Shown here in pieces: positions 2,365 through 61,988 of a stretch of DNA of 64,000 bases. The notes beneath the pieces are model-generated. The model was given only the letters and a program-made list of their open reading frames with translations. It did not search any database and was not told where the DNA came from. Each line of letters begins with the position of its first letter. Positions within the stretch are counted from its first letter, which is position 1. Source of the stretch: an uncultured Actinomycetota bacterium (lineage in GTDB: Bacteria > Actinomycetota > Actinomycetes > Mycobacteriales > Micromonosporaceae); the NCBI GenBank assembly GCA_963803115.1, contig CAWDLN010000003.1:372304-436303 (forward strand), written 5' to 3'. The translations under genes and the position numbers were made by a program.

Positions 2365-3843
2365 ATGACGAGCAGCATCGAGGCCACCTCGAGCGTCAAC
2401 AAGGTCGCAATCGACGACATCGGATCTGAGGAAGCACTCCTCGCCGCGATCGACGAGACCATCAAGTACTTCAATGACGGCGACATTGTCGAAGGCACGG
2501 TCGTCAAGGTCGATCGGGACGAGGTCCTGCTCGACATCGGCTATAAAACCGAGGGCGTCATCCCCTCGCGTGAATTGTCGATCAAGCATGACGTCGATCC
2601 GTCCGAGGTCGTCTCTGTCGGTGATCATGTCGAGGCCCTCGTTCTCCAGAAGGAGGACAAGGAAGGCCGCCTGATCCTCTCGAAGAAGCGAGCCCAGTAC
2701 GAACGCGCCTGGGGCACCATCGAGAAGATCAAGGAGGATGACGGCGTCGTCCGCGGCTCGGTCATCGAAGTGGTCAAGGGTGGGCTCATCATCGACATCG
2801 GGCTTCGCGGCTTCCTGCCGGCCTCGCTCGTGGAGATGCGCCGGGTGCGGGATCTGCAGCCGTACGTCGGTCGGGAGCTCGAAGCGAAGATCATCGAGTT
2901 GGACAAGAACCGCAACAACGTCGTGCTCTCGCGCCGCGCATACCTGGAGCAGACCCAGTCCGAGGTGCGCAGCGAGTTCCTGAACAAGCTCGGCAAGGGT
3001 CAGGTCCGCAAGGGCGTCGTCTCGAGCATCGTGAACTTCGGCGCCTTCGTGGACCTCGGCGGCGTCGACGGTTTGGTGCACGTGTCCGAGCTGTCCTGGA
3101 AGCACATCGACCACCCGTCCGAGGTGGTCGAGGTCGGCCAGGAGGTCGAGGTCGAGGTACTCGACGTCGACCTCGACCGCGAACGGGTTTCCTTGTCGCT
3201 GAAGGCGACGCAGGAGGACCCGTGGCGCCAGTTCGCCCGGACTCATGCGATCCAGCAGATCGTTCCGGGCAAGGTCACCAAGTTGGTACCGTTCGGCGCG
3301 TTCGTGCGAGTCGATGATGGTATCGAAGGCCTGGTGCACATCTCCGAGTTGGCCGAGCGCCACGTGGAGATTCCCGAGCAGGTCGTCCAGGTCGGCTCGG
3401 ACGTCATGGTCAAGGTCATCGACATCGACCTCGAGCGGCGGCGGATCTCGCTCTCGCTCAAGCAGGCGAACGAGGGCTTCGTCGAGGGCGAAGAACACTT
3501 CGACCCGACCCTGTACGGCATGGCCGCGACATACGACAGCGAGGGCAACTACGTCTACCCGGACGGCTTCGACCCGGAGACCGGCGAGTGGCTCGACGGC
3601 TACGACAAGCAGCGCGAGGAGTGGGAGAAGCAGTACGCCGAGGCGCGCCAGCGCTGGGAGGCACACACCAAGCAGGTGCAGACGGCGCGCGCCGTCGACA
3701 CCCCGGCCACACCCGCCACGGACGAGGCGCCACCCGCCGCTCCGGCGGCCGCGGCCAAGCCGGCGGAGCAGCCTCAGGGCACCCTCGCCACGGACGAGGC
3801 GCTCGCCGCTCTCAAGGAGAAGCTGGCCGGCGGCAAGTCCTGA
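2365..3843 (+). CDS. rpsA: 30S ribosomal protein S1
   Basis: MTSSIEATSSVNKVAIDDIGSEEALLAAIDETIKYFNDGDIVEGTVVKVDRDEVLLDIGYKTEGVIP..., four S1 repeats, near-identical to mycobacterial RpsA; GGAG 11 nt upstream of the ATG at 2365 (the longer ORF from 1927 is read-through). Confidence 0.95.
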   Translation: MTSSIEATSSVNKVAIDDIGSEEALLAAIDETIKYFNDGDIVEGTVVKVDRDEVLLDIGYKTEGVIPSRELSIKHDVDPSEVVSVGDHVEALVLQKEDKEGRLILSKKRAQYERAWGTIEKIKEDDGVVRGSVIEVVKGGLIIDIGLRGFLPASLVEMRRVRDLQPYVGRELEAKIIELDKNRNNVVLSRRAYLEQTQSEVRSEFLNKLGKGQVRKGVVSSIVNFGAFVDLGGVDGLVHVSELSWKHIDHPSEVVEVGQEVEVEVLDVDLDRERVSLSLKATQEDPWRQFARTHAIQQIVPGKVTKLVPFGAFVRVDDGIEGLVHISELAERHVEIPEQVVQVGSDVMVKVIDIDLERRRISLSLKQANEGFVEGEEHFDPTLYGMAATYDSEGNYVYPDGFDPETGEWLDGYDKQREEWEKQYAEARQRWEAHTKQVQTARAVDTPATPATDEAPPAAPAAAAKPAEQPQGTLATDEALAALKEKLAGGKS

Positions 3844-3858
3844 GTTGGTAGCACCAGG

Positions 3859-3900
3859 AAGGGCACCTTTCAATGCGCTGGCGCATTGAAAGGTGCCCTT
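3859..3900. terminator. perfect 20-bp-stem hairpin 16 nt after the rpsA stop (aagggcacctttcaatgcgc / gcgcattgaaaggtgccctt)
   Basis: Read directly; no U-tract follows; shares the AAGGTGCCCTT core with the hairpin at 20881-20941. Confidence 0.5.
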
Positions 3901-3958
3901 TCTCGCGGGGCCTGTCGGCCGACAGCTCAGCTTGATCTGCCAAACTCAGCGGGTGCTC

Positions 3959-4570
3959 ATGGTCGGACTCACTGGTGGGATCGGCTCCGGTAAAAGCGCT
4001 GTGGCTCGCCGCCTGGCGGAGCTCGGCGCCCTCGTCATCGATGCCGATGCACTGGCGCGCGACGTGGTGGCGCCCGGTACCGACGGGCTGGCCGAGGTCG
4101 TCGCGGCCTTTGGGCCGGGAGTGCTGGCCGCGGACGGAACGATGGACCGGACCAATGTGGCATCGATCGTTTTCGGCGACGACGAGAAGCGCCGGCGACT
4201 GGAGGCGATCATCCACCCCCGGGTCCGGGAGAGGTCGACCCGGATGATCGCGGCGGCCTCGCCCGACGCGGTGGTGGTCAACGACGTGCCGCTGTTGGTG
4301 GAGTCCGGCATGGCGAGTCACTTCGATCTCGTGATCGTGGTGCTCGCGAGCGAAGCGGTACGGCTGCGGCGCCTGGTCGAACAACGTGGCATGACCGAGG
4401 AGACGGTGCGGGCGCGGTTCGCGGCCCAGGCCACCGACGAGCAGCGGCGAGCGGTCGCCGACGTCGAAATCCTCAACGAGGGCACCCTCGACGAACTCAA
4501 CGCGACCGTTGACGCGGTGTGGCAGCAGGCGATCCGGCCGTTGCTGGATGGTTCGTCGATGGCCGGCTGA
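3959..4570 (+). CDS. coaE: dephospho-CoA kinase
   Basis: MVGLTGGIGSGKSAVARRLAELGALVIDADALARDVV (P-loop); single-domain form, 204 aa. Confidence 0.85.
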   Translation: MVGLTGGIGSGKSAVARRLAELGALVIDADALARDVVAPGTDGLAEVVAAFGPGVLAADGTMDRTNVASIVFGDDEKRRRLEAIIHPRVRERSTRMIAAASPDAVVVNDVPLLVESGMASHFDLVIVVLASEAVRLRRLVEQRGMTEETVRARFAAQATDEQRRAVADVEILNEGTLDELNATVDAVWQQAIRPLLDGSSMAG

Positions 4571-4873
4571 GCCACGGGCAGAAGGCGATCGGCCACAGGT
4601 CGACCGGGCAACGAGAGGGCCGCCCGCGAAGCCGGTGAGCGAGGTGCTCATCCGCTCGGGGAGCCGTTCGGCTGCGGACCCAAGCGCCGGGGTCGACCTC
4701 GCCGGTGTGGTGGCTTGGCCGGGACCGGTCGGCCGTCGCGGACGGCCTACGCCAACGACGTTAGCGCGCGCCAACGCCACGACACAATCGTAATCTTGCG
4801 TAAGCATCGACAACTCTGAGTGTTGATCGGCTCGCCCCCCGTTCTTGTCGGTCGGCCGGCGTAGGTTTGGGCC

Positions 4874-7018
4874 ATGAGCCTGGACATCCCGCGGCTGGAC
4901 GGCACGCTCGAGGTCGTCCACGACTACACGCCGTCGGGCGACCAACCGACGGCGATCGAGGAGTTGGCGGCCCGCGTTAAGCGCGGCGACAAGCATGTGG
5001 TGCTGCTCGGCGCGACCGGTACGGGCAAGAGCGCGACCACCGCTTGGCTCATCGAAAAGCTGCAACGCCCGACCCTCGTGCTCGCCCCGAACAAGACTCT
5101 GGCGGCCCAGTTGGCCAAGGAGTTCCGCGAGCTGATGCCCAACAACGCCGTGGAGTACTTCGTCTCGTACTACGACTACTACCAACCCGAGGCGTACATC
5201 CCGCAGACCGACACGTACATCGAGAAGGACTCGTCGATCAACGAGGAGGTGGAGCGGCTTCGGCATTCGGCGACGATGTCACTGCTGACTCGTCGCGACG
5301 TCATCGTCGTCGCCACGGTCTCCGCAATCTACGGACTCGGCACCCCGCAGGAGTATCTCGACCGCTCGGTCAAGCTCGCCATCGGCACCGAGGTCGAGCG
5401 GGACAAGCTGCTGCGGCGACTCGTCGATGTCCAGTACACGCGCAACGACATGGCCTTCAATCGAGGCACGTTCCGCGTCCGCGGCGACACGCTCGAAATC
5501 ATCCCGGCGTACGAGGAGCTCGCCGTACGGGTGGAGATGTTCGGCGACGAGGTGGAGAAGCTGTACTACCTGCACCCGCTCACCGGCGACGTGGTGCGCG
5601 AGGTCGACGAACTGTTGATCTTCCCGGCGACCCACTACACGGCTGGCCCGGAACGGATGGAGCGGGCGATCCGAGGGATCGAGGCCGAGCTCGAGGCGCG
5701 CTTGGCCGAGTTGGACCGTCAGGGCAAGCTCCTCGAGGCGCAGCGGCTGCGGATGCGGACCACGTACGACGTCGAGATGATGCGACAGGTCGGGTTCTGC
5801 TCCGGCATCGAGAACTACTCGATGCACATCGACGGCCGCGAACCGGGCAGTCCGCCACACTGCCTGCTCGACTACTTCCCGGATGACTTCCTCACCGTCA
5901 TCGATGAGTCGCACGTGACCGTGCCGCAGATCGGCGGCATGTACGAGGGCGACGCGTCCCGCAAGCGCACCCTGATCGAGCACGGGTTCCGGCTGCCGTC
6001 GGCGGCTGACAACCGTCCATTGCGTTTCGACGAGTTCGAGGAGCGCGTGGGCCAGACCGTTTATCTGTCGGCGACCCCTGGCCCGTGGGAGCTGGGCAAG
6101 ACCAAGAAACAGGTCGTCGAGCAGGTGATCCGACCGACCGGATTGGTCGACCCGGAGGTCGTCGTCAAGCCAACTAAGGGACAGATCGACGATCTGATGC
6201 ACGAGATCCGCACCCGATCCGAGCGTAACGAGCGCGTGCTGGTGACCACGCTGACGAAGAAAATGGCGGAGGACCTCACCGACTATCTGCTCGAGCACGG
6301 CATTCGGGTGCGGTACCTTCACTCCGAAGTGGACACTCTGCGTCGGGTGGAGCTCCTCCGGGAGCTGCGACGGGGCGACTACGACGTGCTCGTCGGGATC
6401 AACCTGCTCCGCGAGGGCCTGGACCTGCCCGAGGTCTCCCTGGTGTCCATTCTGGACGCCGACAAGGAGGGCTTCCTGCGCTCCGGGACCTCACTCGTGC
6501 AAACCATCGGGCGTGCGGCCCGGCACGTCTCGGGCCAGGTGCACATGTACGCCGACAAGGTCACCCCGTCGATGGCGGCCGCGATCGACGAGACCAACCG
6601 GCGCCGGGCCAAGCAGGTGGCCTATAACGTGGCCAATGGGGTCGACCCGCAGCCGCTGCGCAAGAAGATGGGCGACATTCTCGACGACATCTACCGCGCG
6701 GCCGACGAGGCCGAGGCGTTGGTCGGCGGCGTGCTCGGCGGCCACGGCCCGGGCGGTGCCATCGTCGGCGGCAGCGGCCGGCAGATGTCACGTGGCAAGG
6801 CACCGGTGAAGGAGACCCGCAGTCGGGCATCGAAGGCGATCACCGCGCCCACCGAGGGCATGGCCCGCGCCGAGCTGGCCAAGCTCATCAGCGACCTGAC
6901 GGACCAGATGCTCGGCGCCGCCCGGGAGCTGCAATTCGAGCTGGCCGCCCGAATCCGGGACGAGATAGCGGAGCTCAAGAAGGAGATCCGCCAAATGGAC
7001 GTCGCCGGCGCCCGCTGA
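4874..7018 (+). CDS. uvrB: excinuclease ABC subunit B
   Basis: 714 aa, near-colinear with mycobacterial UvrB ([35 protein letters not shown] ... [23 protein letters not shown]). Confidence 0.95.
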
Positions 7019-9028: not shown

Positions 9029-9749
9029 TCCAGTCCGCGATCCGACGCAACAGCTCCGGCTTCGCCGCGTTCTCCGCGTGGCCGAACCCGGATTCCAACC
9101 ACAGCTCCTTCGGCTCGCCGGCCGCCGCGAAGAGGTGCTCGGCGTGCTCGACCGGAAAGTAATGGTCGGCATCGCCGTGGACCACGAGCAGTGGAACCGG
9201 GGCGATGTGCGCCGCGAGCTCGTGCGGCGGTGCCGGCACCGGGTCCCAGCCAGCGGCGGAGATCCGGGTGCGTAGCGCCATCCGGCCAACGAGACGGCCG
9301 ACCGGGCGTTCGATGACCCAATGGGCCCGGCGCATGGCCGGTGTGCCGCGGTAGTACCACCGGCTCGGGCCGCTGACGGCTACCACCGCCGCCAGTCCAG
9401 CGTCCGGATCATGAGCATGTAGACCCGCGTGGCGGACGACCACCGACGCCCCCATCGAGAACCCGACGGTCGCGACCCGTTCGTAGCCGAGCTGTCGCGC
9501 CCAGTCGACGGCCGCCTCGAGGTCGAGTACCTCGAGGTCGCCAACGGTGCTGACTCCACCCGAGCGCCCATGGCCCCGAAAGTCGAAGCTCACCACCCCC
9601 GCGACTCGGCCGAACTCCGCCGCGACCCGCCGCATCGGCGGCCGTCGCCACGAACCGGTGAAGCCGTGGGCCACGACGATTGCGAGCTTCGATGGACCCG
9701 GATCGTGGTAGGCGTCGATCGGGACGCCGTCGGCGGCGAAGATTTCCAT
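9009..9749 (-). CDS. alpha/beta hydrolase
   Basis: MEIFAADGVPIDAYHD...VGFSMGASVV (GxSxG) ...HGDADHYFP; its start overlaps the ABM stop as TGATG (translational coupling). Confidence 0.7.
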   Translation of the reverse strand: MEIFAADGVPIDAYHDPGPSKLAIVVAHGFTGSWRRPPMRRVAAEFGRVAGVVSFDFRGHGRSGGVSTVGDLEVLDLEAAVDWARQLGYERVATVGFSMGASVVVRHAGLHAHDPDAGLAAVVAVSGPSRWYYRGTPAMRRAHWVIERPVGRLVGRMALRTRISAAGWDPVPAPPHELAAHIAPVPLLVVHGDADHYFPVEHAEHLFAAAGEPKELWLESGFGHAENAAKPELLRRIADWITTNAR

Positions 9750-10042
9750 CAGGCCGGCACGTCGGTGAAGTGCTCGACCCGCGGTGGCTCGGCAAAGTAC
9801 GGTCCGATGTGCCCGCGCCACTGGGTGAACCGGTCGGTGTTGCGGAAGTTCTCGACATGCGCGTCGACCGAGTCCCACTCGACCAGCAGCACGAACCGCG
9901 ATGGCGACTCGATGCCGCGGGTCATCCGGACCGCACGGCAGCCCGGCGTGGTGACGAGCACCGAGCGGGCGGTGAGGTATGCAGCGGCGAAGTCGTCCTC
10001 CTGGCCGGAACGGACGTCGATCAGGGCAACCTCGAGAACCAT
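9749..10042 (-). CDS. antibiotic biosynthesis monooxygenase (ABM) domain protein
   Basis: MVLEVALIDVRSGQEDDFAAAYLTARSVLVTTPGCRAVRMTRGIESPSRFVLLVEWDSVDAHVENFR, 98 aa; the 364-aa track ORF is upstream read-through. Confidence 0.65.
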   Translation of the reverse strand: MVLEVALIDVRSGQEDDFAAAYLTARSVLVTTPGCRAVRMTRGIESPSRFVLLVEWDSVDAHVENFRNTDRFTQWRGHIGPYFAEPPRVEHFTDVPA

Positions 10043-10071
10043 GCCGGAAGAGTACTGATCACCGGCGCGGG

Positions 10072-11352
10072 TCATTCCACCGACGTCCAATCGGAACGAC
10101 CTCGGCCGTGCCGACGAATGGGGCCGTGCCGACGAATGGGGTGGTGCGCGGGGTCGGTTTCGGGCTGCGGGGATCGTGGCGGCGGAGCGTGCGGCATGGG
10201 CTCTGGCCCGGAATCGTCCAGCAACCGGCCGGCCTCGCCGGTGCGGGCGACGCTGTGCCAGCGCAGGCGGATGCCGGTCAATGCCGTGACGGTCGACTGT
10301 ACGGTCACGAGATACATCAGCTGCCGGTACACGACGAGCTGGAAGGGCAAGCTCCACAGTGGTGTGAGCCGTTCCCGGTCGAGGCGCAGGGCGTACCCGG
10401 CCGCTACCAGTTGTACCGCGGTGTAGCTCAGCCAGACCGCCAGAACCTGCGGTACGGGCAGGAACACCAAGCCGTACACGGCATAGACGTCGACGGCCGG
10501 AGCGCTCAGCGGCAACAGGATCTGGAACAGCACGAGGTACACCAGGCCCCGACGGCCGAGCTTGCCCGCCGCCCCGCGCTCGCGGAGCGACGCGCGGTGC
10601 TTCCAGATCGCCTGCATGGTGCCGTAGCACCACCGGTACCGCTGCCGCCACAGCTGGCGCAGGGTCGACGGCGCTTCGGTCCACGCGATCGCCGTCTCCT
10701 CGTAGACGACCCGCCAGCCGGCGCGCAGGACGGCCATCGTGAGGTCCGTGTCCTCGGCCAGAGTGGTCGCAGGCACGCCGCCGGTCGCGTCGAGGACCTG
10801 GCGGCGGAACGCCCCGATCGCACCCGGCACGGTCGGCATGCACTCGCCGAGGTCGTAGAGACGACGGTCGAGGTTGAATCCCACCACGTACTCGAGGTGT
10901 TGCCAGCGGCCGAGCAGGCCCTTGCGGTTGGCGACCTTCGTGTTGCCGCTGACGGCACCCACATCCGCGTCGGCGAAGGGTTGCACGAGGCGCCCTAGGG
11001 CATCACGCTCGAAGACCGTGTCGCCGTCCACGAGCACGATGAGATCGCCCATCGCCCGGGCAATGCCGGCATTGAGCGCGGCCGGTTTGCCGGCATTGGC
11101 CTGTCGTACAACCCGGACACCCCGCAGGCCCAGCGACCGCACGATATCCGCCGTGCCGTCGGTTGACCCATCATCGACGACGATCACTTCCACCGACGGG
11201 TAGTCGCTCGCGATCAGCGATCGGACCGTGGCGGCGATATTCGCCGCCTCGTTGTATGCGGGCACGACCACCGAGACGGACCCGAGGTATCGCAGGCGGC
11301 TGTGCTCTCGGCTGACGCCGGGCGCGTCGCGCGTGGATCCTCGCGGCCACAA
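10072..11352 (-). CDS. processive family-2 glycosyltransferase (PgaC/IcaA/NodC-like)
   Basis: VVVPAYNEA...VDDGSTDGT...LVDGDT...QRYRWCYG (QxxRW) and C-terminal TM helices; contains an 18-bp tandem duplication (10104-10139) that gives HHPIRRHGPIRRHG. Confidence 0.75.
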   Translation of the reverse strand: MWPRGSTRDAPGVSREHSRLRYLGSVSVVVPAYNEAANIAATVRSLIASDYPSVEVIVVDDGSTDGTADIVRSLGLRGVRVVRQANAGKPAALNAGIARAMGDLIVLVDGDTVFERDALGRLVQPFADADVGAVSGNTKVANRKGLLGRWQHLEYVVGFNLDRRLYDLGECMPTVPGAIGAFRRQVLDATGGVPATTLAEDTDLTMAVLRAGWRVVYEETAIAWTEAPSTLRQLWRQRYRWCYGTMQAIWKHRASLRERGAAGKLGRRGLVYLVLFQILLPLSAPAVDVYAVYGLVFLPVPQVLAVWLSYTAVQLVAAGYALRLDRERLTPLWSLPFQLVVYRQLMYLVTVQSTVTALTGIRLRWHSVARTGEAGRLLDDSGPEPMPHAPPPRSPQPETDPAHHPIRRHGPIRRHGRGRSDWTSVE

Positions 11353-12331
11353 CCTGAATCCCGAGCCGGAGCAGGCCCAGGCCCAACGCGACGAACAGGA
11401 TCAACTCCAGCGCGCTGGACAACCAATTCGCCAGGCGCTGAGCGACGCGAAGGGCATCGCCACGCAGATTGCTGGCGGCGTTGGCGTCCGCGTTGCTCGG
11501 GGGCAGCTGCAGCGCCTCCGAGACCGTTGTGAAGTGGTATCCCTGCTGGCCGAGCTGGGTCAGCAGGGCATCGACGGCAGCAACTGTCTGCGACCGGTCG
11601 CCGCCGCCGTCGTGGAGCATGATTACCGCGCCCTCGCCCGGCGCCGGCGCGGCCGCGGCGACGATGGCGGGCACGCCTGGATTGGCCCAGTCTTTGGTGT
11701 CGCGGTCGGCCAGGACGGTGAGATACCGGCCAGCGGCGACGCTCTTCAATGCGTCGAACTCCTCGGCGCTCATCGCGTCGGGTTCGGACGAGAAGGGCGG
11801 CCGCAGGAGCACACTGTTGACCCCGGCGGCCCCGGCGATCGCGTTCTGGCTGAGGGTCAGCTCGAGATTACGACGCCACTGCGGGATCGTGATGAGCTCG
11901 GCGTGGGTGAACGTGTGCGCCCCGACCTCGTGGCCCTCGGCGACCATGCGACGAACCAGATCCGGGTGATCGTTGACTTCCGAGCCGATGACAAAGAAGG
12001 TGGCGTGCGCGCCGTGTCGAGCAAGCACATCGAGGATCTTCGGTGTCCAGTTCGGGTCCGGTCCGTCGTCAAACGTCAGGGCGATCGAATCGGCGGGCAG
12101 GCGGCGGCTGGACACCTCGCCGTTGCTGTCAATGCGAAGCACGGGTCCACCCGCGAGCACGTTGTCCGGCGCCGCCGCGCGTCCTTCCGCGGGTATCCGC
12201 GGTCCGTCCCCCTCATGACCGACGTGGTGCACATAGCCGGAAAGGCACAACTCGCCGAGCAGAAGTACCAGCCCAAGAACGAGCAGCACCCAGTGCGCGC
12301 GTGGCTCGCGCCGGTTGGTGTGGATGGCCAT
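11171..12331 (-). CDS. polysaccharide deacetylase (NodB/CE4 domain) with N-terminal TM anchor
   Basis: HWVLLVLGLVLLLGELCLSGYV (TM) ... ALTFDDGPDPNWTPKILDVLARHGAHATFFVIG ... a C-terminal TM, then an Arg-rich tail overlapping the GT2 start by 182 nt in another frame. Confidence 0.75.
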   Translation of the reverse strand: MAIHTNRREPRAHWVLLVLGLVLLLGELCLSGYVHHVGHEGDGPRIPAEGRAAAPDNVLAGGPVLRIDSNGEVSSRRLPADSIALTFDDGPDPNWTPKILDVLARHGAHATFFVIGSEVNDHPDLVRRMVAEGHEVGAHTFTHAELITIPQWRRNLELTLSQNAIAGAAGVNSVLLRPPFSSEPDAMSAEEFDALKSVAAGRYLTVLADRDTKDWANPGVPAIVAAAAPAPGEGAVIMLHDGGGDRSQTVAAVDALLTQLGQQGYHFTTVSEALQLPPSNADANAASNLRGDALRVAQRLANWLSSALELILFVALGLGLLRLGIQVVAARIHARRARRQPRAQPPAIPRVRLGGRARIQRGGEYRRHGPIADRERLPVGGSDRRR

Positions 12332-12336
12332 CGAAG

Positions 12337-12801
12337 CTAGGTTTTCGTCGGCTTGGGGGGATGCGAAGGCGTTTGAGTGGGAACGTGTCGGCGAGATGTC
12401 AGATCAACCGATGCGGTGGTACCCGGCGTCGGATCTTGCGTGCTACCGGCACCAGGGACAGCACCGCCGGCCGCGCCGGTCGGCTCACGGGGGTTGGGGG
12501 TCTGGGCACCGGCGTTGTTTGGCGGTTGCCCGAAGTCGGGGAATCCGGGCACCCGCAGCGGCGCCGTGCCGGAGAACCCGGCGACAAGCGTGATCAACGC
12601 AAGGAGGATCAGCACCGCCGCGGCGGAACCTGAAACGATCACGAGACGGCGCCTCCGGCCGGACCGGTCGAGAAAAACGGGCCGAGCGGCCCTGCGGGCG
12701 CTTCTCGGCGCGGCGTCCCGTGGGGTACGGATCGTCGCATCACGCTGAGTGCTCGACTCAGCCGCGACTGGTGATCGGGGAGTGGTCGGGGATCTGTTCA
12801 T
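12337..12801 (-). CDS. hypothetical single-pass membrane protein with Pro/Thr-rich C-terminal tail
   Basis: MNRSPTTPRS...RRRLVIVSGSAAAVLILLALITLVAGF...PTPGTTASVDLTSRR...PKPTKT; GAGGTGA RBS; stop lies 5 nt before the deacetylase start (operon). Confidence 0.4.
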   Translation of the reverse strand: MNRSPTTPRSPVAAESSTQRDATIRTPRDAAPRSARRAARPVFLDRSGRRRRLVIVSGSAAAVLILLALITLVAGFSGTAPLRVPGFPDFGQPPNNAGAQTPNPREPTGAAGGAVPGAGSTQDPTPGTTASVDLTSRRHVPTQTPSHPPKPTKT

Positions 12802-12989
12802 GTCACCTCGCTCAGCGATCCCTCTCCCGTAGGTGTCACACGCCTCGGATTGGGCGCGATCCATCATGCACGAATCCGTAGCGACAACCTACTGCCTGCC
12901 GGTCGCCATATGACGCAGCCGCTCCCGGGGTCAAACCATCGACGAAGATCAACGGTACGGGCTGGTGCAGCCGATCCGGCCATCATCAG

Positions 12990-13140
12990 GCACAATGGTC
13001 GACACCAGGAGGGGAGTATTCCCTAGCCGTGGGGTCGTCAGCACGGTCAAGCCCGCGGTGCTCAGCCAGAGCGCCATCCGGAGGAGGCCCGGCGCCGCGG
13101 GTCGTCGGGTTGGGGCCCGGGGGCGGGAGAGACCTCCGCT
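12990..13140 (+). ncRNA. candidate yybP-ykoY-like (Mn2+) riboswitch in the 355-bp leader of the TerC gene
   Basis: AGGAGGGGAGUAUUCC at 13005-13020 matches the conserved GGGGAGUA element of yybP-ykoY leaders, which typically precede TerC-family genes. The rest of the fold was not verified. Confidence 0.25.
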
Positions 13141-13223
13141 GAACACCAAGTGCATCCGTGCGTGTGCTGGCGCTTCCAGCCGGCCTGCGGGACGGGCGCA
13201 CGTGTCCGCGGAGGGGTAGGCGC

Positions 13224-14240
13224 ATGGGCGTCGAGACCTGGGTCTGGGTCGTCACACTGGTTGCTACGGTCGGCTTGCTTTTCGCCGACCTGTTCGTGAT
13301 CGGTCGGCGGCCGCACGAGCCGTCGTTGCGAGAGTCAACCCTCTGGGTGACCTTCTACGTCGCCCTCGCGCTGCTCTTCGGCGTCGGCCTGTGGTTCGTC
13401 GCAGGGCCCACGTACGCGGGACAGTTCTACGCGGGCTGGCTTACCGAGTACAGCCTGTCCGTGGACAATCTCTTCGTCTTTGTGATCATCATGTCGCGGT
13501 TCGCGGTACCGCGGCAGTTCCAGCAGAAGACATTGCTGATCGGCATCGTGCTCGCCCTCATCATGCGCGGCATCTTCATCGCGGCCGGCGCGGCTTTGAT
13601 CAGCCAGTTCATCTGGGTCTTCTACATCTTCGGCCTGTTCCTGCTTCTTACCGCCATCCGCCTGGTGACCCATCGGGGGACCGAAGATCCGAGCGAGTTC
13701 AAGGAGAACCTGCTCATCCGGGTGTCCCGCCGGGTGCTGCGGACGTCGAAGGAGTACGACTCCAAGGCCCACTTCTTCACCCACTTCCCTGACGGCCGGC
13801 GGATGCTGAGCCCCCTGATCATTGTGATCATCGCGATCGGTACCACCGACCTGATCTTCGCCCTCGACTCGATCCCGGCGATCTTTGGTTTGACCAAGGA
13901 GCCGTACATCGTCTTCACCGCGAACGTGTTCGCGCTGATGGGGCTGCGGCAGCTCTACTTCCTGCTCGGGGGTCTGCTCGACCGGCTGAAGTTCCTGTCG
14001 TACGGGCTTGCGATCGTCCTCGCCTTCATCGGCGTCAAGTTGGTGATGGAGGCCCTGCACGCGAACAACGTGCCGTTCATCAATGATGGTGAGCCGCTCA
14101 CCGCGGTGCCGGAGATCTCGACCGCGACGTCGCTGGTCGTGATCGCCGCGACGCTCGTCATCACGACCGTGGCGAGCCTGGTCAGCTCCCGGCGCGACCG
14201 GCAACGCGCCGAGGCGAGCACACCAGCCGTCGAGCCGTGA
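13224..14240 (+). CDS. TerC family integral membrane protein
   Basis: MGVETWVWVVTLVATVGLLFADLFVIGRRPHEP...EYSLSVDNLFVF...TDLIFALDSIPAIFG; GGGGTAGG RBS. Confidence 0.85.
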   Translation: MGVETWVWVVTLVATVGLLFADLFVIGRRPHEPSLRESTLWVTFYVALALLFGVGLWFVAGPTYAGQFYAGWLTEYSLSVDNLFVFVIIMSRFAVPRQFQQKTLLIGIVLALIMRGIFIAAGAALISQFIWVFYIFGLFLLLTAIRLVTHRGTEDPSEFKENLLIRVSRRVLRTSKEYDSKAHFFTHFPDGRRMLSPLIIVIIAIGTTDLIFALDSIPAIFGLTKEPYIVFTANVFALMGLRQLYFLLGGLLDRLKFLSYGLAIVLAFIGVKLVMEALHANNVPFINDGEPLTAVPEISTATSLVVIAATLVITTVASLVSSRRDRQRAEASTPAVEP

Positions 14241-28822: not shown

Positions 28823-31179
28823 TCACTCGGTGAGGCCAGCGCGGCGTAGTGCGTCGGCGAGGGCCGTGTTGGATCCGTCGGAGGTCGGCCCCCCGCGGCC
28901 GCGCCCCGGGGCAGGCGGTCGACCACCCCGATCGTCGCGTTGGTCTCGACCGTCCCGGGGCGATCGACCGGGGCGAGCCGAGGTTGCCTCGTCGTCGAGG
29001 CGCAGGGTGAGGGATATCCGCTTGCGGGGGATGTCGACGTCGAGCACCTTCACCCGTACGACGTCCCCTGGTTTGACCACATCGCGCGGATCCTTGACAT
29101 AGGTGTGGGACAGGGCCGAGACGTGCACCAGACCGTCCTGGTGGACGCCGACGTCGACGAATGCGCCAAACGCGGCGACATTTGTCACGACGCCCTCGAG
29201 CACCATCCCGGCACGGAGGTCGGCGAGCGTCTCGACGCCGTCGGCGAAGGTGGCCGTCTTGAACGCCGGCCGAGGATCGCGTCCGGGCTTCTCCAGTTCC
29301 CTGAGGATGTCCGTGACGGTCGGCAGGCCGAAGGTGTCGTCGACGAACTCGTCCGGCTTCAGTCCACGAAGGACGGACGAGTTGCCGATCAGCACCTTGA
29401 GGTCGGTGCCCGTCGTCCGAAGGATCCGCCGTACCACGGGGTAGGCCTCCGGGTGCACGCTCGAGGCGTCCAGGGGGTCGTCACCCCCGGGGATGCGCAG
29501 GAAGCCGGCGCACTGCTCGAACGCCTTCGGGCCCAGCCGCGGGACCGACTTCAGTGCCGTCCGTGTACGGAATGGTCCGTTTGCGTCGCGGTGCGCCACG
29601 ATGTTGCCGGCGAGGCCCTCGCCGATCCCGGAAACCCTTGTCAGCAAGGGCACCGACGCGGTGTTCACGTCGACGCCAACCGCGTTGACGCAGTCCTCGA
29701 CGACCGCGTCGAGGCTGCGGGAGAGTTTGATCTCGGCGAGATCGTGCTGGTACTGGCCGACGCCGATCGACTTCGGGTCGATCTTCACCAGCTCGGCCAA
29801 GCGGGTCCTGCAGTCGCCGTGCGATCGAGACCGCGCCCCGCAACGACACATCCAGCCCGGGCAGCTCGGCCGACGCATAGGCCGACGCCGAGTAGACCGA
29901 GGCGCCGGCCTCGGAAACGACGATCTTGGTCAGGCCGGACACCAACGAGATGAGATCGCCGGCCAGCTTGTCGGTCTCCCGGGATGCGGTGCCGTTGCCG
30001 ATCGCGACCAACTCGACCTGGTGCGCCTTGGCGAGCCGGGCGAGAGTAGCCAATGCACTCTTGCCAGCGCTGCTGCGGCACGTGGGGGTAGATGGTGTCG
30101 GTCGCGACGACCTTGCCGGTGGCATCGACGACGGCCACCTTCACGCCGGTCCGGAATCCGGGGTCGAGGCCCATGGTGGCGCGGGTTCCGGCGGGAGCGG
30201 CGAGGAGCAGGTCGCGCAGATTGGCCGCGAAGACCCGTACCGCTTCGTCCTCGGCCGCCTGGAACAGGCGCATCCGAACGTCGATGCCGAGATGCGCGAG
30301 GATCCGCGTCCGCCAGGCCCAGCGGACCGTGTCGCCGAGCCACTTGTCGGCCGCGCGTCCGCGGTCCGCGATGCCGAACCGTACCGCGATCTCTTGCTCG
30401 TACTAGTCGGCCCGTCCGATCGCCGGCGCCTGGTCCGGCTCCATCGACAGATCGAGGATCTCCTCCTTCTCGCCCCGGAACATCGCCAGGATCCGGTGCG
30501 AGGGCAGTTTGGTGAACGGTTCCGAGAACTCGAAGTAGTCGGCGAACTTGGCCCCCGCTTCCTGCTTGCCCGGCCGTACCGTTGCCGCCACCCGGCCCTT
30601 CGCCCACATCTTCTCGCGCAGCGAACCGATCAGGTCCGCGTCTTCGGCGAAGCGCTCGACGAGGATCGCCCGCGCACCCTCGAGCGCCGCCGCGGCGTCG
30701 GCCACACCCCGGTCAGCGTCGACATAGGCCAGTGCGGTCGCCAGGGGTCCAGCGTCGGATCGCCGAGCAGCGCGTCGGCGAGTGGTTCGAGGCCAGCCTC
30801 CCGGGCGATCTGCGCCTTCGTGCGGCGCTTGGGCTTGTACGGCAGGTAGATGTCTTCGAGACGCGCCTTGGAGTCGGCGGCCATGAGCTGGTCGAGCAGC
30901 GCGTCGTCGAGCTTGCCCTGCGAGCGGATCGACTCGATGATCGCGGCCCGGCGGTCCTCCATCTCCCGGAGGTAGCGCAATCGCTCCTCGAGCGTGCGAA
31001 GCTGGGCGTCATCCAGCGACCCCGTGACCTCCTTGCGGTAGCGCGCGATGAACGGCACCGTCGCCCCGCCGTCGAGCAATTCGACCGCGGCGGCCACCTG
31101 TCCGTCGCGAACGCCGAGCTCATCCGCGATCCGCTGGCTGATCTTGCGCGCGGTGTCCGCTGGGGTCGCGTTGCTCACT
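28823..31179 (-). pseudogene. tex: transcription accessory protein Tex, disrupted by three frameshifts and one in-frame amber codon
   Basis: Pieces in different frames align colinearly with E. coli Tex: Tex_[15 protein letters not shown]; YqgF MRLFQAAEDEAV...[20 protein letters not shown]; [15 protein letters not shown]; HhH/S1 [20 protein letters not shown]...[17 protein letters not shown]. Lesions at about 30744-30747, 30403-30405 (cta, i.e. TAG), 30064-30075 and 29797-29801. Confidence 0.8.
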
Positions 31180-31495
31180 GAACCGCCTCTTCGCTCGTCG
31201 GGACGTCGGCGTGTCATTGTGCCGTCGCCCGCTGGTTGTTGTCGCGCCGGCTCGCGGAGCTTGACGCAATCGGCAAGATTGGTACGCGGTAGCGACGGGA
31301 GGCGGCATGAGCGAGAACCGCAACGTGTATCTGGACCAGGTGATGGCCCAGCAGGAGCGGCTGGAACAGGACTTGCGCTCGAAGCGGTCGCGCGCCGGCG
31401 CCAGCGGTGGCTCCAGCGGCCGGGGGCGTTCCGGCTCAGCGCGGCCGGGGCGGCGGCCGCGACTCCGGCGGCGCGACCGGAGCCGGCACCGTCGG

Positions 31496-32695
31496 CGGTG
31501 GACGTACGGGTCAGCGGCTTCTGGCGCTGGAAGACGGTGCTCGTGCCGCCGAACGCGTTCGTGGTGCACACCCGCCGCGGCCGGAGCGAGCCGCTGCACG
31601 TCGGGCTCGGCACCTCGTTCCGGTTCGACCCGGCCCGCGACTCGTACCTGGTCGTACCCGGGCGCCATGCAGACGATCCTGATCAACGCCTACTGCATCT
31701 GCCAGGAGCTGCAGGGTCTGGTGGTTCAGGCGTACGTCCAGTGGATCATCCAGGACTTCCCCACCGCGTACCGCAAGCTCGACTTCGGCGACCCGGACGA
31801 CCCGATGCGCCTGGTGAACCTGCAGCTCAAGGAGCAGGCCGAGGCGGCCATCAAGGACAAGGTCGCCACGATGGGCGTGCACGAGGTGCTCAGCGACAAG
31901 CAGCCGATCGTGGAGGAGCTGACCGCCCGGCTGCGCGCGGTGGCCGAGGGTGAGGGCGGCAGCGACCGCGGCCTCGGTCTGCGCATCGTCACGGTGCAGA
32001 TCAAGGAGGCGATCGTCAGCTCGGCACGGCTATGGGAGAACCTGCAGAAGCCATTCCGCTCCGAGCAGGGCCGGATCGCCCGCCTCGCCGAACTGAGCGC
32101 GGAGGAGGCGATCACCGAACGCGAACTGTCCGCGGCCCGGGTGCAGGAGACCCAGCGGATGGAGACCGAGCGCGAACTGGCCGAGCTGCGGGCGCGCAAC
32201 GAGGCGGCCACGTTCGACCGGGAGGCGGGGGAGAAGGTCCGCCGAGCGCAGACGGAGCAGGAGTCCGCGCGCCAGTTGAGTGAGATGCAGAACGAGACCC
32301 TGCTGCATGAACTCGAGCTGGAGCGGGAGCGCAGCGAGCAGGAGCTCGAGGTCGGCCGGCTTCGGCTGGAGCGGGAGTACGCACTGCAGCGTCAGGGTCT
32401 GGATGGCGAGCTGGCCCTGGCCCAGGCGCGTGCCGACGCCGCCCACGCCAACGCCCTCCTAGCCCTGGAACGGGATCGTATCCGGGCTGCCATAGAGAAC
32501 GGGGCGTCACCGCAGGCAATCCAAGCGAAGATGATCGACTCGCTGCCGGAGATCGTCGCCAAGCTGCCCAAGCCGGCCGAACTCCGGGCGGTGACGATCG
32601 GCGGCGACTCGACCACCGTGGCGGGGCTCATCGCTGAGCTCGGAGCCGTGGTCGGCGCCCTACGCACGATCGCCCCACCCGGGGCGGATGCCTGA
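31496..32695 (+). pseudogene. SPFH/band-7 (flotillin/YqiK-like) protein with a frameshift near 31657-31662; N-terminus uncertain
   Basis: [51 protein letters not shown] in one frame, continuing as [25 protein letters not shown]...coiled-coil in the next. An extra G in cccggg is consistent with the shift. Upstream [12 protein letters not shown]... (31307) may belong to it. Confidence 0.55.
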
Positions 32696-57927: not shown

Positions 57928-58590
57928 TCAGGAGACGTCGCTGAGGAAGGCGAGCACCGCCCGTACCCGACGGTGACTTGTGTCGTCGTCGACCAAGCCG
58001 AGTTTCGCGAAGATGGCGTTGATGTGCTTCTCGACCGCGCGGGTTCCGATGTCCAGCCGCTGCGCGATCGCGGTGTTGCTCAGGCCCGTGGCCATCGCCG
58101 CCAGTACCTCAGCCTCGCGGGGGGTCAGCCAGGAAAGTGGTGACCGGCCACGAGCACGGGCATTGACCAGCCGGGTCACCACCCTCGGGTCGATGACGGA
58201 GCCGCCGGCCGCGACCGTTCGGATCGCGCCGGTGAGCTGGTCCACGTCGGAGATCGTCTCCTTGAGCAGGTACGACCGACGCTCCGAGCCGGCCTCCAGT
58301 AGCGCGAGCACGTACTCCGGCTCGTCGTACTGGCTCAACACAACGACGCCGACCTGCGGCGCCTCGACCGCGAGTTCGGCCGCTAGGCGGATTCCCTCGT
58401 CGGAGCGGGTCGGTGGCATCCGGATGTCGGTCAGGACGACGTCGGGCCGCTCACGTACCACCGCGTCTCGAAGCGTCCCGTAGTCGGCACAGGTCGCGAC
58501 GACGTCGAGGTCCGGTTGGGTGGCCAGGATCCGCTCGATACCCTGCCGGACCAGGAAGTCGTCCTCGCCGATCGCGACTCGGATGCCCAT
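57928..58590 (-). CDS. NarL/LuxR-family response regulator (REC + HTH_LuxR), no adjacent kinase
   Basis: MGIRVAIGEDDFLVRQGIERIL...VVLTDIRMPP...LTPREAEVLAAMATGLSNTAIAQRLDIGTRAVEKHINAIFAKL. Confidence 0.85.
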   Translation of the reverse strand: MGIRVAIGEDDFLVRQGIERILATQPDLDVVATCADYGTLRDAVVRERPDVVLTDIRMPPTRSDEGIRLAAELAVEAPQVGVVVLSQYDEPEYVLALLEAGSERRSYLLKETISDVDQLTGAIRTVAAGGSVIDPRVVTRLVNARARGRSPLSWLTPREAEVLAAMATGLSNTAIAQRLDIGTRAVEKHINAIFAKLGLVDDDTSHRRVRAVLAFLSDVS

Positions 58591-58780
58591 GTCGCAAAGG
58601 CTAGTGCCGCGACGGTCGATGCATCGACCGGCTTCCGTCGCCGGTCTGGGAAATCCGGCCGTGTCGGGGTTCGGGCAGGTATGTCGGTCCGAAGTCCACA
58701 CCGGCAGCAGAGTAGCTACTCGCTGAGCGGTGTGGACTTCATGACAGACACGGTGGCCCGGTATGGCCACCGGGTGTCAC

Positions 58781-61369
58781 CTAGGGCCGATCGGCGATCC
58801 GCCAAGCGCGGACCTGAAGCGAACCGTCCAGGCCTCCCACTACCGCGAGGTTCGCCGACACCAGGTCGCCCTCCGCGTGGTTCGTTGGCACCGCACACAC
58901 CTCGATCGAACTCGAGTCAAAGGTCGGGACTTGATGTTCGGCGATGCGATACGGCGTGATCGTGTCGTCCGCGTTGCGCCGGGACTCCCAGACGACGAGC
59001 CTCTGTTTCGCCTCACCGTCCTTGATGGCCGTCACCAACCCCGACGTGCCGAACGGTACGACTGACGGTCGCTCGAGGACTACGTCGGTCGTGGGCCCTG
59101 TATCACCGCGCTTGGTGAAGTCCTTGAACCCGTCGAAGTCGAAGTCCACGCCGCCGTACACGATCCGTAGGAATCCGCCGTTAGTCCGGACTGCGGTCGC
59201 GAAATAGATCGGCCTGAAGATCTCGTCGTCGGGCAGCCGTTGCTCGACCGGGATGGCGGTGATACTCACGCGGCTGGCGGCGATCGAGGTGCCGAATGAC
59301 CCGACGGCCGCGATCGTGCCGGCGACCGGGTCGAGTGACCAGAGTTCGTTGGCCACGGTGCCCGTGTCGCTCCTACGCACGGCCGTGGCGAAGTAATACA
59401 GGGCTCCCACCACAAACGGACCCGCCACCGACACCTGGTCGACCGCGAGCGACGGGGTGAGCGATCCGACGCTGACAAGCTTCGTCGTCACGTTCCGGGT
59501 GTCGACCCGCCACGCCGTGAGCGCGAGTTTCCCGTCCTGGTCAACATCGGCGACAAGGAATAGGCTGTCGTCGATCGGCAGCAGGCGAACGGACGCGCCG
59601 ACACCCGCGGGTACGTCCTCAACGACGAGACTCGGTGTGCCGCTCGGCGCGACATTCCATAGCGAGAGCTTGATGCTTCCGCCAGGCTTGGGGTTGTTCA
59701 GGCTCGGATTACCCTTCGTCTTGGCCGTAACGACGGAGTTATCACCAAGGTGTATCGCTTGAACGTCGGAAGTGAAGAGAGCCTGCGAATTGCTAGCCCC
59801 CTGAGGCGCGCTTTCAGCGACTTTCGCGATCGTTGATCCGTCGACGTCGACCCCCCATGTCGTCAGGGTCACGCCGTGGTCGGCCGCCATCGCGGCCGAG
59901 ACCGCGCGGCCGTCGGGTAGGCAGGCCAAGGCGTGGTCGGTCCAGCCGGTCCCAGCACCGATCGTGTCGCGCAGGTCGGGATGGAATAGGACGGAGAACG
60001 AGTAGTCGAGCGCGAGCGTCGGGTCATCCTGGGTCGGTGGGTAGCTCGCTCCAATCAGGCCGAGCACGAGCCGGCGCCCGATCCGTTTCGCGCTGGAGAT
60101 CGAGCAGTTGAGGTTGTACGGGCTGTTCGAGCCGCTGCCGCACGCGCCGGAGCTGCCGCCCTTGCCACCCTCGGAGCCCGGATAGGCGCCGACGCCCCAA
60201 CCGAGGCTGTACTGCTTCTGGCCACCGCCCAGGAACGTCGAGAAGCTGTAGGCCGGGCCGGGGAATCCAACCACCTGGCGGAAGAGCGGGTCCTGGAAGC
60301 CGTGCTCCCAGATCCTCGCGAGATCGCGCGCGGTTGTGTAATGGATGTAACCGTTCTTCTTGAACGAGTCTTTGCAGAATGACAGGTTGAGCACTGTTCC
60401 ATAGGCGTCGGCGGTGGGGCACTTGTTGTCGAGGCCGGCGGGATTCGTGAAGTGGCTGTTCGGAAGACCAGCGGCCGTGACGTGACCGGGCAGGGTGACG
60501 TCGTTCATGAGCTCAACGAAGGTGCTGACATTGCCCGCGACGTGCTCGGCTATGGCGATGGCCGCGTCGTTGCCCGAGGGATACATCATGCCGCGCAGAA
60601 GGTCGCCGAACTGCACCTGCTCACCTTGTTGCAACGGGATGTATGAGTTCCAGGTGCCGAGATCGTAGAAGTCCATGTAGCGGATGCGCGGATCGTCGGT
60701 CACCGGCGTAACCGGGTTGGTCGTCGGTTGCGGGCCAAGGAAGAGTCTCTCGCCGCCGTCGTACTGCCCGTCCAGGTCCGCGTCGTACACGATGGTCTCG
60801 CCGCTGTCGCGCGTCCCGTTGCTGTTCGAGTCGACGTACGTAACATGGGGGTCGTCGGCGAGTGCCGCTCCCGTCGCCGGCGTGCCATTCCCGTTTGGCA
60901 GCAGGACAACCTCGCCGGAGCCGTAGGTGGCGTCCTGGTCGGCGTCGATGACAAGGAACTCGCCGAACCGATCGCCCATGAGCGAGCTGCAGCCGCCCAT
61001 CAGCGAGCTACAAGGCACCCAGGGCGACGTGGCCACCGCGTTCGCGCTCACGGTGACCCAGTCGCCGAGAGTGCAGAACCCGGCCGGCGAGGTGGGGCAT
61101 GCGCCGGGAATGCGACCCATGAGCGCATCGACCGCGATGTGCAACGACACGATCTTGGTGGTGCTGGCCATGCCGTTCGGGTCGTCCGGCAATCCTGAGA
61201 AGAGTTCGCCGTTCGGTCCCTGGAAGTCATAGAGCGGATCGCCGACGAAGTAACGCGGCGCGATCAGTGTGGGCGCGGCGGAGTCCGCATGGGCAATCTC
61301 AGATGCCGTCGTGAGAGCGAGGACGGCGACGGTTGCGACGGCTCCGACCAGAACTCTACGGATATACAT
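58781..61369 (-). CDS. secreted serine-type D-Ala-D-Ala carboxypeptidase (S11/PBP-like) with internal insert and ~450-aa C-terminal extension
   Basis: Signal peptide; ASTTKIV (SxxK), YPSGNDAAIAIAEH (SxN), Asp/Gly-rich Ca-binding-like insert; long beta-rich C-terminal region. Confidence 0.7.
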   Translation of the reverse strand: MYIRRVLVGAVATVAVLALTTASEIAHADSAAPTLIAPRYFVGDPLYDFQGPNGELFSGLPDDPNGMASTTKIVSLHIAVDALMGRIPGACPTSPAGFCTLGDWVTVSANAVATSPWVPCSSLMGGCSSLMGDRFGEFLVIDADQDATYGSGEVVLLPNGNGTPATGAALADDPHVTYVDSNSNGTRDSGETIVYDADLDGQYDGGERLFLGPQPTTNPVTPVTDDPRIRYMDFYDLGTWNSYIPLQQGEQVQFGDLLRGMMYPSGNDAAIAIAEHVAGNVSTFVELMNDVTLPGHVTAAGLPNSHFTNPAGLDNKCPTADAYGTVLNLSFCKDSFKKNGYIHYTTARDLARIWEHGFQDPLFRQVVGFPGPAYSFSTFLGGGQKQYSLGWGVGAYPGSEGGKGGSSGACGSGSNSPYNLNCSISSAKRIGRRLVLGLIGASYPPTQDDPTLALDYSFSVLFHPDLRDTIGAGTGWTDHALACLPDGRAVSAAMAADHGVTLTTWGVDVDGSTIAKVAESAPQGASNSQALFTSDVQAIHLGDNSVVTAKTKGNPSLNNPKPGGSIKLSLWNVAPSGTPSLVVEDVPAGVGASVRLLPIDDSLFLVADVDQDGKLALTAWRVDTRNVTTKLVSVGSLTPSLAVDQVSVAGPFVVGALYYFATAVRRSDTGTVANELWSLDPVAGTIAAVGSFGTSIAASRVSITAIPVEQRLPDDEIFRPIYFATAVRTNGGFLRIVYGGVDFDFDGFKDFTKRGDTGPTTDVVLERPSVVPFGTSGLVTAIKDGEAKQRLVVWESRRNADDTITPYRIAEHQVPTFDSSSIEVCAVPTNHAEGDLVSANLAVVGGLDGSLQVRAWRIADRP

Positions 61370-61408
61370 ATGGACGACCTTCCCTTCGAGGGCTGTGACG
61401 GGTGGCGT

Positions 61409-61903: not shown

Positions 61904-61988
61904 GGTTCTCCGATCGGGGTTCCGGGGACATGGATGTTCCTTGAACTGGGCAACAAGGTATTTACGCGGACACCGTGCGTGAACCGTG

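Follow-up and report, generated by a model that had tools for sequence, protein, structure and literature searches.

In Streptomyces coelicolor and S. lividans, MatB (SCO2962) and MatA (SCO2963) are the synthase/deacetylase of poly-beta-1,6-GlcNAc (PNAG) involved in hyphal aggregation, and the MatAB product is known as poly-beta-1,6-GlcNAc, being reactive with mAb F598 and sensitive to dispersin B (PMC5972031). In the published MatB, one transmembrane (TM) helix connects a CE4 domain outside the cell with a GT2 domain inside it, the domain-less MatA being encoded upstream, while SCO2961, an IcaC-like acyltransferase, is only a possible participant which "might also play a role" (PMC5972031). 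The Ica and Pga systems use two separate proteins, a deacetylase and a synthase (PMC5972031). It was to the fused CE4/GT2 arrangement of the MatB type that the first-pass annotation had likened the locus described here, a comparison that proved apt since the published architecture matches.

A mat-type locus with overlapping reading frames

In the window, that is the whole 64-kb stretch of DNA analysed, three open reading frames (ORFs) follow one another on the minus strand as had been claimed: a matA-like ORF encoding a small membrane protein of 176 aa (12337-12867), a CE4 deacetylase ORF of 386 aa with an ATG start (11171-12331) and a GT2 ORF of 426 aa with a TTG start (10072-11352). The deacetylase and GT2 ORFs share 182 nt (11171-11352), the GT2 frame being +1 relative to the CE4 frame, and the annotated motifs TFDDGP and QRYRW were found in the former and the latter respectively. 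The locus is in all probability a cassette of two genes, one matA-like and one matB-like, from a Micromonosporaceae-type actinomycete. The source record gives products for the flanking genes and none for the CE4 and GT2 ORFs, which fits a pseudogene annotation, and it appears to list no protein for the locus. An Rfam scan of the whole window, including the intergenic region between the matA-like gene and TerC, returned no riboswitch or other RNA, and a promoter scan of 9700-13300 returned no sigma-70-like sites, a result of little weight for an actinomycete.

The matA-like ORF, without a match in Pfam or NCBIfam, has RPVFLDRSGRRRR as its conserved core and encodes a single TM helix and a tail rich in Pro and Thr. 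It lies directly upstream of the CE4 ORF in the same orientation, with 5 nt between its stop and the CE4 start. Its true start is probably the ATG at 12801 or at 12864/12867; the source record calls a 101-aa product from GTG 12642, by which the conserved motif is lost. Homologues are found immediately 5' of the fused gene in loci from Micromonosporaceae (phmmer 1e-27 to 1e-12); more weakly, the ORFs at the matA position of Streptomyces loci are also homologous to it. On the other side of the cassette, an ABM-domain (HmoA-like; PF03992) gene occupies 9749-10075 on the minus strand, with a 108-aa product in the source contig. In this version its ATG overlaps the GT2 stop (ATGA), making co-transcription possible, so that the gene may be transcribed together with GT2; its position in the gene order is kept in the contigs of three relatives (P0001, P0002 and P0130).

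The in-frame 5' part of the matB-type gene (11314-12331, minus strand) encodes an anchor TM segment, the CE4/NodB domain, a linker TM helix and the start of an Arg-rich linker. By hydropathy, the N-terminal signal-anchor covers aa 14-32 and the linker helix aa 310-328. The PF01522 polysaccharide deacetylase domain spans aa 78-187 of the 386-aa ORF (9e-34), and all five CE4 motifs are legible in the translation (TFDDG, HTFTH, RPPF, DTKDW and MLHD). The annotation had described a TM helix followed by an Arg-rich, out-of-frame tail at the end of this ORF, and both are borne out: the helix LILFVALGLGLLRLGIQVV, residues 310-328 of the restored protein, stands just before the Arg-rich tail, the start of the cytoplasmic linker including ...ARIHARRARR, and the GC3 phase places the tail out of frame. 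The phase changes from the CE4 to the GT2 frame at about 11328-11333, some 140 nt before the CE4 stop. The out-of-frame stretch (11171-11312, minus strand) counts 47 codons, reading QPRAQPPAIPRV...SDRRR before the stop and containing QPRAQPPAIPRVRLGGR...; no homologue of it was found among 5.8 billion proteins, and the same DNA, read in the other frame, encodes the beginning of the GT2 domain.

The 3' part of the gene, in the +1 frame (10072-11312, minus strand), encodes the remainder of the linker, the GT2 catalytic domain, and C-terminal TM segments with a tail. PF13641 and PF00535 cover aa 26-244 of the 426-aa ORF, PF13632 is also matched, and the motifs of a processive GT2 are present (VVPAYNE, VVDDGS, DGD, AEDTD and QRYRW). 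As had been noted from the sequence, the ORF has no hydrophobic N-terminal segment, with which it fits that the PgaC_IcaA model TIGR03937 is matched only from position 39 (model positions 39-283; 7e-55). The first codons of the ORF, from its TTG start (11313-11352, minus strand; MWPRGSTRDAPGV), are a spurious extension, namely CE4/linker-helix DNA read out of frame. A GT2 start farther 5' that would include a TM helix was rejected, since the GT2 frame is closed by a stop at about 11401 and specifies nothing hydrophobic ahead of the junction. The non-conserved C-terminal tail carries a perfect in-frame tandem duplication of 18 bp (10104-10141, minus strand; PIRRHG-PIRRHG; TRF period 18, 2.1 copies, 100% match), which the closest relatives do not share: it is an 18-nt gap in L163, and P0001 and P0130 have one copy.

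A single extra base at the junction

Nucleotide comparisons and dN/dS estimates were made against L163, the contig of P0130, whose gene is intact (746 aa). With this protein as query, tblastn gave two segments, residues 1-340 on 12331-11312 (88% identity) and 341-746 on 11310-10075 (91.5%), which abut at 11312/11310 one frame apart. Over the 2.26 kb of coding sequence, the only indels in the nucleotide alignment with L163 are the in-frame 18-nt duplication and one extra base at 11313, an A on the coding strand (minus; T on the plus strand) in the context cgg cgt c[A]gc cga gag. The annotation had suspected one fused gene with a frameshift near 11250-11300, reparable by a single shift to a protein of about 770 aa. 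Relatives, tblastn, alignment and restored ORF all agree with one fused gene and one frameshift, which lies at 11313 by the L163 alignment, outside the range proposed, and the repaired length is 752 aa.

Once the A is removed, this single 752-aa ORF matches the closest relatives end to end and keeps both Pfam domains, its junction reading ...ARRARRRREHSRLRYLGSVSVVVPAYNE as compared with ...ARRARRRRERSRLRYLGPVSVVVPAYNE in P0002. At 140 columns conserved in at least 97% of 161 relatives, the restored protein has no mismatch (35/35 in the CE4 half and 105/105 in the GT2 half). The CE4 half has a dN/dS of 0.09 against L163 and the GT2 half one of 0.06, values in the range of the intact flanking genes (0.12 and 0.07). 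As sequenced, CE4 and GT2 do not share a polypeptide with a single TM helix between them, the frame breaking 11 codons past the linker helix; removal of one base restores that structure, so that the locus is a disrupted member of the MatB type or, should the base be an error, an intact one.

In a search with the conceptual fusion, the best 120 database relatives were all single fused proteins, of about 622-765 aa, carrying PF01522 and GT2 together, the top one being 90% identical over 97% of the query; where NCBI gives a product name, it is mostly [quoted passage not shown]. One ORF with both motifs was found in 156 of 160 related loci. The four exceptions are a fused gene with a motif variant (L011), two genes cut by contig ends (L092 and L145) and one with a single frameshift inside the CE4 domain, at another site than 11313 (L154). 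Of these loci, 157 are complete across the junction, and in every one the reading frame runs on through it uninterrupted. A further public relative (L162/P0142, contig_65655) has three frameshifts in the CE4 half, none at the junction, and a GT2-only gene call. Orthologues with two genes sharing the present boundaries were found neither in the 160 loci nor in L162. In the P0001, P0002 and P0130 contigs, the gene is intact and the gene order of the window is shared.

In-frame relatives, full conservation and low dN/dS together imply that the break is very recent or artefactual, and a frame break in an otherwise intact fused gene marks the two-ORF picture as a lesion rather than an evolved split. 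It is consequently very likely that the two ORFs are one fused matB-type gene broken by one extra base, and not a new arrangement. The normal product of a matB-type gene is one membrane protein with an N-terminal anchor helix, an extracellular CE4 domain, a TM helix, a cytoplasmic processive GT2 domain and C-terminal TM segments, predicted by homology to Streptomyces MatB to polymerise and partly deacetylate PNAG. In the present sequence the A at 11313 shifts the frame, sending the CE4 half into its nonsense tail and leaving the GT2 half as an ORF with neither an N-terminal TM helix nor an evident ribosome-binding site.

Lesion, consensus error or functional split

Whether the base belongs to the organism or to the deposited sequence bears on all that follows, a recent inactivating mutation and a consensus error being roughly equally likely. 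The second is a sub-case of the single-base lesion in which the 752-aa gene is intact in the organism and the extra A is confined to the deposited sequence, for which the chances are judged slightly short of even. A single-base indel in a perfectly conserved gene under strong purifying selection is consistent with such an error, as is the finding, in the same window, of a Tex gene with three frameshifts and a stop, next to an SPFH gene with at least one frameshift. The Tex frameshifts (near 30745, 30061 and 29800) and the mapped SPFH one (31657-31662) fall in short runs of one nucleotide or of a dinucleotide, all inside some 3 kb (29.8-31.7 kb), and their closeness suggests that the consensus may be locally unreliable; the source contig, of 697 kb, suggests a long-read assembly, and the public relative L162 has its three frameshifts in the same gene. 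On the other hand, the inserted A stands between C and G, outside any homopolymer, the in-frame TAG of Tex (30403-30405) is a substitution rather than an indel, and a composition scan detected no further frame break in the roughly 60 kb outside the Tex/SPFH cluster. An independent Logan contig (run ERR11718635) is 100% identical over 3541 nt of the window (58463-62003), away from 11313; no contig spanning 11313 was found among Logan or other assemblies. Exact-match queries with the CE4 ORF, UvrB, the hydrolase, TerC and a variant of the ABM ORF returned no recorded sequence; where the start codon chosen made such a query uninformative, homology searches take its place. With several frame-broken conserved genes in one window, oddities of gene structure in this assembly call for read support first.

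If the lesion is real, the synthase, and hence the polysaccharide, would most likely be lost. An environmental Micromonosporaceae lineage would then be a natural matB null, in which, by analogy with Streptomyces matB mutants (PMC5972031), a PNAG-like matrix would be absent and aggregation and adhesion reduced. Against inactivation, both ORFs are open and every catalytic motif is intact, and, judged from the sequence, a CE4-TM protein may be made alongside a GT2 protein with its own initiation. A real and tolerated frameshift, after which these two proteins cooperate as in ica/pga, would also accord with the low dN/dS of the GT2 half and with the natural separation of deacetylase and synthase in Ica/Pga (PMC5972031). 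However, the split occurs in no relative, including those of about 90% identity, leaving no time for selection to have acted on it, and the GT2 ORF is without the N-terminal TM helix of PgaC/IcaA-type synthases. Moreover, no Shine-Dalgarno (AGGAGG-like) sequence was seen by eye before TTG 11352, GTG 11271 or GTG 11265, and the CE4 stop lies 100-180 nt 3' of the candidate GT2 starts, which makes simple stop-start coupling impossible. Such cooperation of two separate proteins is therefore very unlikely, and it is a shade less likely still that the A is real and the polysaccharide is made by two separately translated pieces, a membrane-anchored CE4 deacetylase retaining the first TM helix of the synthase and a GT2 synthase without it, in a natural un-fusion of MatB; the linker helix would then be dispensable or able to act in trans.

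Genes for exopolysaccharides are phase-variable in some bacteria, and a +1 shift at 11313 would restore the full protein, so that control of synthase expression by a phase-variable switch or by programmed +1 frameshifting on the ribosome was also considered. This was rejected and is exceedingly improbable: the break is not conserved, the sequence cgt cag ccg offers no slippery or repeat tract, TRF finds no repeat there, and no suitably placed stop or hungry codon is present. In addition, homology in the GT2 frame starts at the codon immediately after the insertion, and none of the 157 loci complete across the junction would need a shift. The preferred reading is still that of one matB-type gene carrying one extra base, to be annotated as a single gene, frameshifted or corrected, instead of two, with little significance beyond that.

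Comparison with the Mat, Pga and Ica systems

Members of the Micromonosporaceae family of this gene (Dactylosporangium, Phytohabitans, Micromonospora, Hamadaea and others) share 62-90% full-length identity with the restored protein. In the closest contigs, the neighbours are shared as well, with TerC, an RF-1-domain protein and NlpC/P60 on one side and ABM, alpha/beta-hydrolase, MDMPI, epimerase and UvrB on the other. The family genes are intact single ORFs, whereas the copy in the window has the frameshift and the 18-bp tail duplication.

Streptomyces MatB resembles the restored protein in domain order, from anchor TM, extracellular CE4 domain and single TM helix to cytoplasmic GT2 domain and C-terminal TM segments, and the fused proteins of Streptomyces loci are 50-55% identical to it. 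One of these loci (L033) has the order matA-like gene, fused gene and Acyl_transf_3, which is the published mat-locus architecture, and from this level of identity to proteins at Streptomyces loci of mat architecture we infer that the product would be PNAG. The Streptomyces ORFs at the matA position and the matA-like ORF have the motif PVF[LV]DxSGRR in common. The downstream gene differs, being Acyl_transf_3 (IcaC-like) in Streptomyces mat loci and the ABM-domain gene in the window, where no IcaC-like acyltransferase follows directly. Unlike Streptomyces MatB, the window gene is interrupted by a 1-nt insertion, and its host is of Micromonosporaceae type.

Among NCBIfam models, the GT2 domain is closest to the PgaC/IcaA model TIGR03937, far under the equivalog cutoff (186.6 bits against 422.3) and not over the full length that includes the N-terminal TM segment, and the deacetylase ORF is, likewise, of the CE4/NodB family to which PgaB/IcaB belong. 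In E. coli and Staphylococcus, PgaC/IcaA and PgaB/IcaB are by nature distinct proteins that are targeted individually, whereas the split in the window is accidental and deprives the GT2 part of its first TM helix.

Two overlapping ORFs in place of one reading frame

The locus lies entirely on the minus strand and comprises a matA-like ORF of 176 aa (12337-12867), a CE4 deacetylase ORF of 386 aa with an ATG start (11171-12331) and a GT2 ORF of 426 aa with a TTG start (10072-11352). The last two overlap over 182 nt (11171-11352), the GT2 frame being +1 relative to the CE4 frame. Pfam searches assigned a polysaccharide deacetylase domain (PF01522, 9e-34) to residues 78-187 of the 386-aa ORF and GT2 domains (PF13641, 2e-41; PF00535; PF13632) to the 426-aa ORF, while the 176-aa ORF had no Pfam match. 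The NCBIfam model nearest to the GT2 part was PgaC_IcaA (TIGR03937, 7e-55, with a score far under the model cutoff), and this match starts only at model position 39, indicating that the usual N-terminal membrane helix is absent from the GT2 ORF. The operon layout and the overlap described in the first-pass annotation were confirmed as written by the ORF listing, Pfam and NCBIfam. Solved-structure relatives reflected generic GT2 and CE4 folds only.

Codon-position GC fits the CE4 frame as far as ~11333 and the GT2 frame from ~11328, which is ~140 nt ahead of the CE4 stop codon, and the final 47 codons of the CE4 ORF (QPRAQPPAIPRV...SDRRR) had no match among 5.8 billion proteins. Judged from the sequence, this tail is a wrong-frame translation.

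A single fused gene in relatives and its interruption at 11313

When a conceptual CE4+GT2 fusion was used as query, the best 120 matches were all single proteins of ~622-765 aa containing both domain types; those named by NCBI were mostly called 'bifunctional polysaccharide deacetylase/glycosyltransferase family 2 protein' and came mostly from Micromonosporaceae. The top match, P0001, showed 90% identity over 97% of the query. Among 160 related loci drawn from collections of genomes and metagenomes, 156 had a single ORF containing both catalytic motifs, and the four exceptions are L011, also fused and carrying a motif variant, L092 and L145, in which the gene is truncated by contig ends, and L154 (2455-5099), in which one frameshift lies within the CE4 domain at another site than in the window. 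P0142, a GT2-only gene call on the long contig L162 (ENA ERZ25039591 contig_65655, 3134-5257), turned out to come from a copy broken by three frameshifts, all inside the CE4 half and again at other sites. No two-gene arrangement with the window's boundaries was found in the 160 loci plus L162; therefore these relatives, P0142/L162 included, do not refute the split of a fused gene proposed at first pass. As L162 and L154 are frame-broken, ~1-2% of public copies of this ~2.2-kb gene appear disrupted.

At the junction, relatives read ...ARIHARRARRRQERYRLRYLGPVSVVVPAYNE (P0001) and ...ARRARRRRERSRLRYLGPVS (P0002, another database protein); translated from the window, the CE4 frame gives ...ARIHARRARR and the GT2 frame SREHSRLRYLGSVSVVVPAYNE. 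In tblastn with P0130, an intact 746-aa member of the P0001 cluster, residues 1-340 aligned to 12331-11312 and residues 341-746 to 11310-10075, as two abutting HSPs one frame apart. The contig encoding P0130 (L163) is 84% identical in nucleotides to window positions 13521-8675, and within the 2.26-kb gene the only indels between them are an extra A at 11313 (coding strand), 11 codons past the linker helix (residues 310-328 of the restored protein), and an in-frame 18-nt duplication at ~10124-10141. Removal of this A yields an ORF of 752 aa (...ARRARRRREHSRLRYLG...) that encodes both Pfam domains in a single chain. The fused relatives, the tblastn result, the L163 alignment and the restored ORF together show that the interpretation of a frameshifted fused gene was correct, a one-base removal restoring a single ORF, of 752 rather than the ~770 aa anticipated; the expected position, near 11250-11300, was ~10-60 nt off. 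The matB-type gene belongs to a known family and lies in a known arrangement, with a single base interrupting it.

The 18-nt duplication is a perfect tandem repeat (10104-10141, PIRRHG twice) in the non-conserved C-terminal tail of the GT2 half, and is not present in the closest relatives P0001 and P0130/L163.

Age, origin and consequences of the frameshift

The 140 alignment columns conserved at >=97% in 161 relatives, of which 35 fall in the CE4 half and 105 in the GT2 half, show no mismatch in the restored protein, whose GT2 half shares 95% identity with P0001 and P0002. The CE4 half had a Nei-Gojobori dN/dS of 0.090 against L163 and the GT2 half one of 0.061 (dS 0.45-0.79), compared with 0.12 and 0.07 for intact flanking genes. 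The absence of mismatches and the low dN/dS imply that divergence from the nearest relative took place almost entirely under purifying selection on the fused frame. On these comparisons, the frameshift is either very recent or absent from the organism itself.

The latter corresponds to one of two readings, namely that the extra A is a sequence or consensus error, and further conserved genes of the window are indeed frame-broken. Tex (transcription accessory protein; 28838-31160, minus strand) lies in four frame segments, with frameshifts at ~30745 (CCCC run), 30061 and 29800 (TT/GG run) and an in-frame TAG at 30403-30405, and is otherwise ~62-70% identical to the full-length references P0179 and P0181. 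The adjoining SPFH/Band_7 gene (31307-32695, plus strand) is shifted in frame within a CCCGGG run (31657-31662); with one G removed, its Band_7 match, otherwise confined to profile positions 38-175, covers 3-175, and a second shift may lie near 31380, given that the ATG at 31307 belongs to another frame. These lesions cluster inside ~3 kb (29.8-31.7 kb), the Tex frameshifts and the mapped SPFH one being in short runs, and look like locally poor consensus or a decaying region. On the other hand, the A at 11313 is flanked by C and G, the Tex stop is a substitution rather than an indel, a composition scan revealed no more frame breaks in the other ~60 kb of the window, and positions 58463-62003 are matched at 100% identity by a Logan contig from run ERR11718635. 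By this match, the run includes the same organism as the window. Look-ups of contigs from other assemblies retrieved none that spans 11313. Rfam found nothing in the whole window.

The source record, an NCBI+ENA contig of 697,172 bp, has products in the protein collection for flanking genes (ABM, 108 aa; matA-like, 101 aa; hydrolase, 246 aa) and none for the CE4 or GT2 ORF, which would fit a locus annotated as a pseudogene with a frameshift.

Should the A be real, translation of the CE4 half would yield a protein that keeps the linker helix and ends in a 47-residue nonsense tail. Translation of the GT2 half would have to start independently, at TTG 11352 or GTG 11271/11265, ahead of which no Shine-Dalgarno-like sequence was seen by eye, and a separate GT2 product would be without the first TM helix typical of this synthase class. 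Synthase function would then most likely be lost, and a working split into CE4 and GT2 proteins has a low probability. Programmed frameshifting or phase variation was rejected because the site has neither a slippery nor a repeat tract and relatives do not share the break. The finding itself is ordinary, its main value being an annotation and quality flag.

Comparison with the Streptomyces mat locus

Streptomyces MatB combines intracellular GT2 and extracellular CE4 domains with one TM helix between them; MatA, encoded upstream, is without known domain, and PNAG, aggregation of hyphae and attachment to hydrophilic surfaces all depend on matAB (PMC5972031). By analogy, the window gene may serve MatB-like PNAG synthesis. 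The hydropathy profile of the restored protein agrees with the topology of MatB, showing an anchor helix (14-32), the linker helix and C-terminal hydrophobic segments from 595. Upstream, the window ORF shares with same-position ORFs of Micromonosporaceae and Streptomyces a conserved core, RPVF[LV]DxSGRRRR, a TM helix and then PG. The matA-like product of the source record starts at GTG 12642, downstream of the motif RPVFLDRSGRRRR conserved in the homologs of both groups, and the gene probably begins instead at ATG 12801 or 12864/12867.

Streptomyces loci in the set share 50-55% identity with the window protein, and one of them, L033, has the MatA/MatB architecture followed by an Acyl_transf_3 (IcaC-like) gene. 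In contrast, the window and its closest relatives are without this acyltransferase and carry in its position, in conserved order, an ABM-domain (HmoA-like) gene (9749-10075, minus strand, in the 108-aa version from the source contig), whose ATG overlaps the GT2 stop (ATGA).
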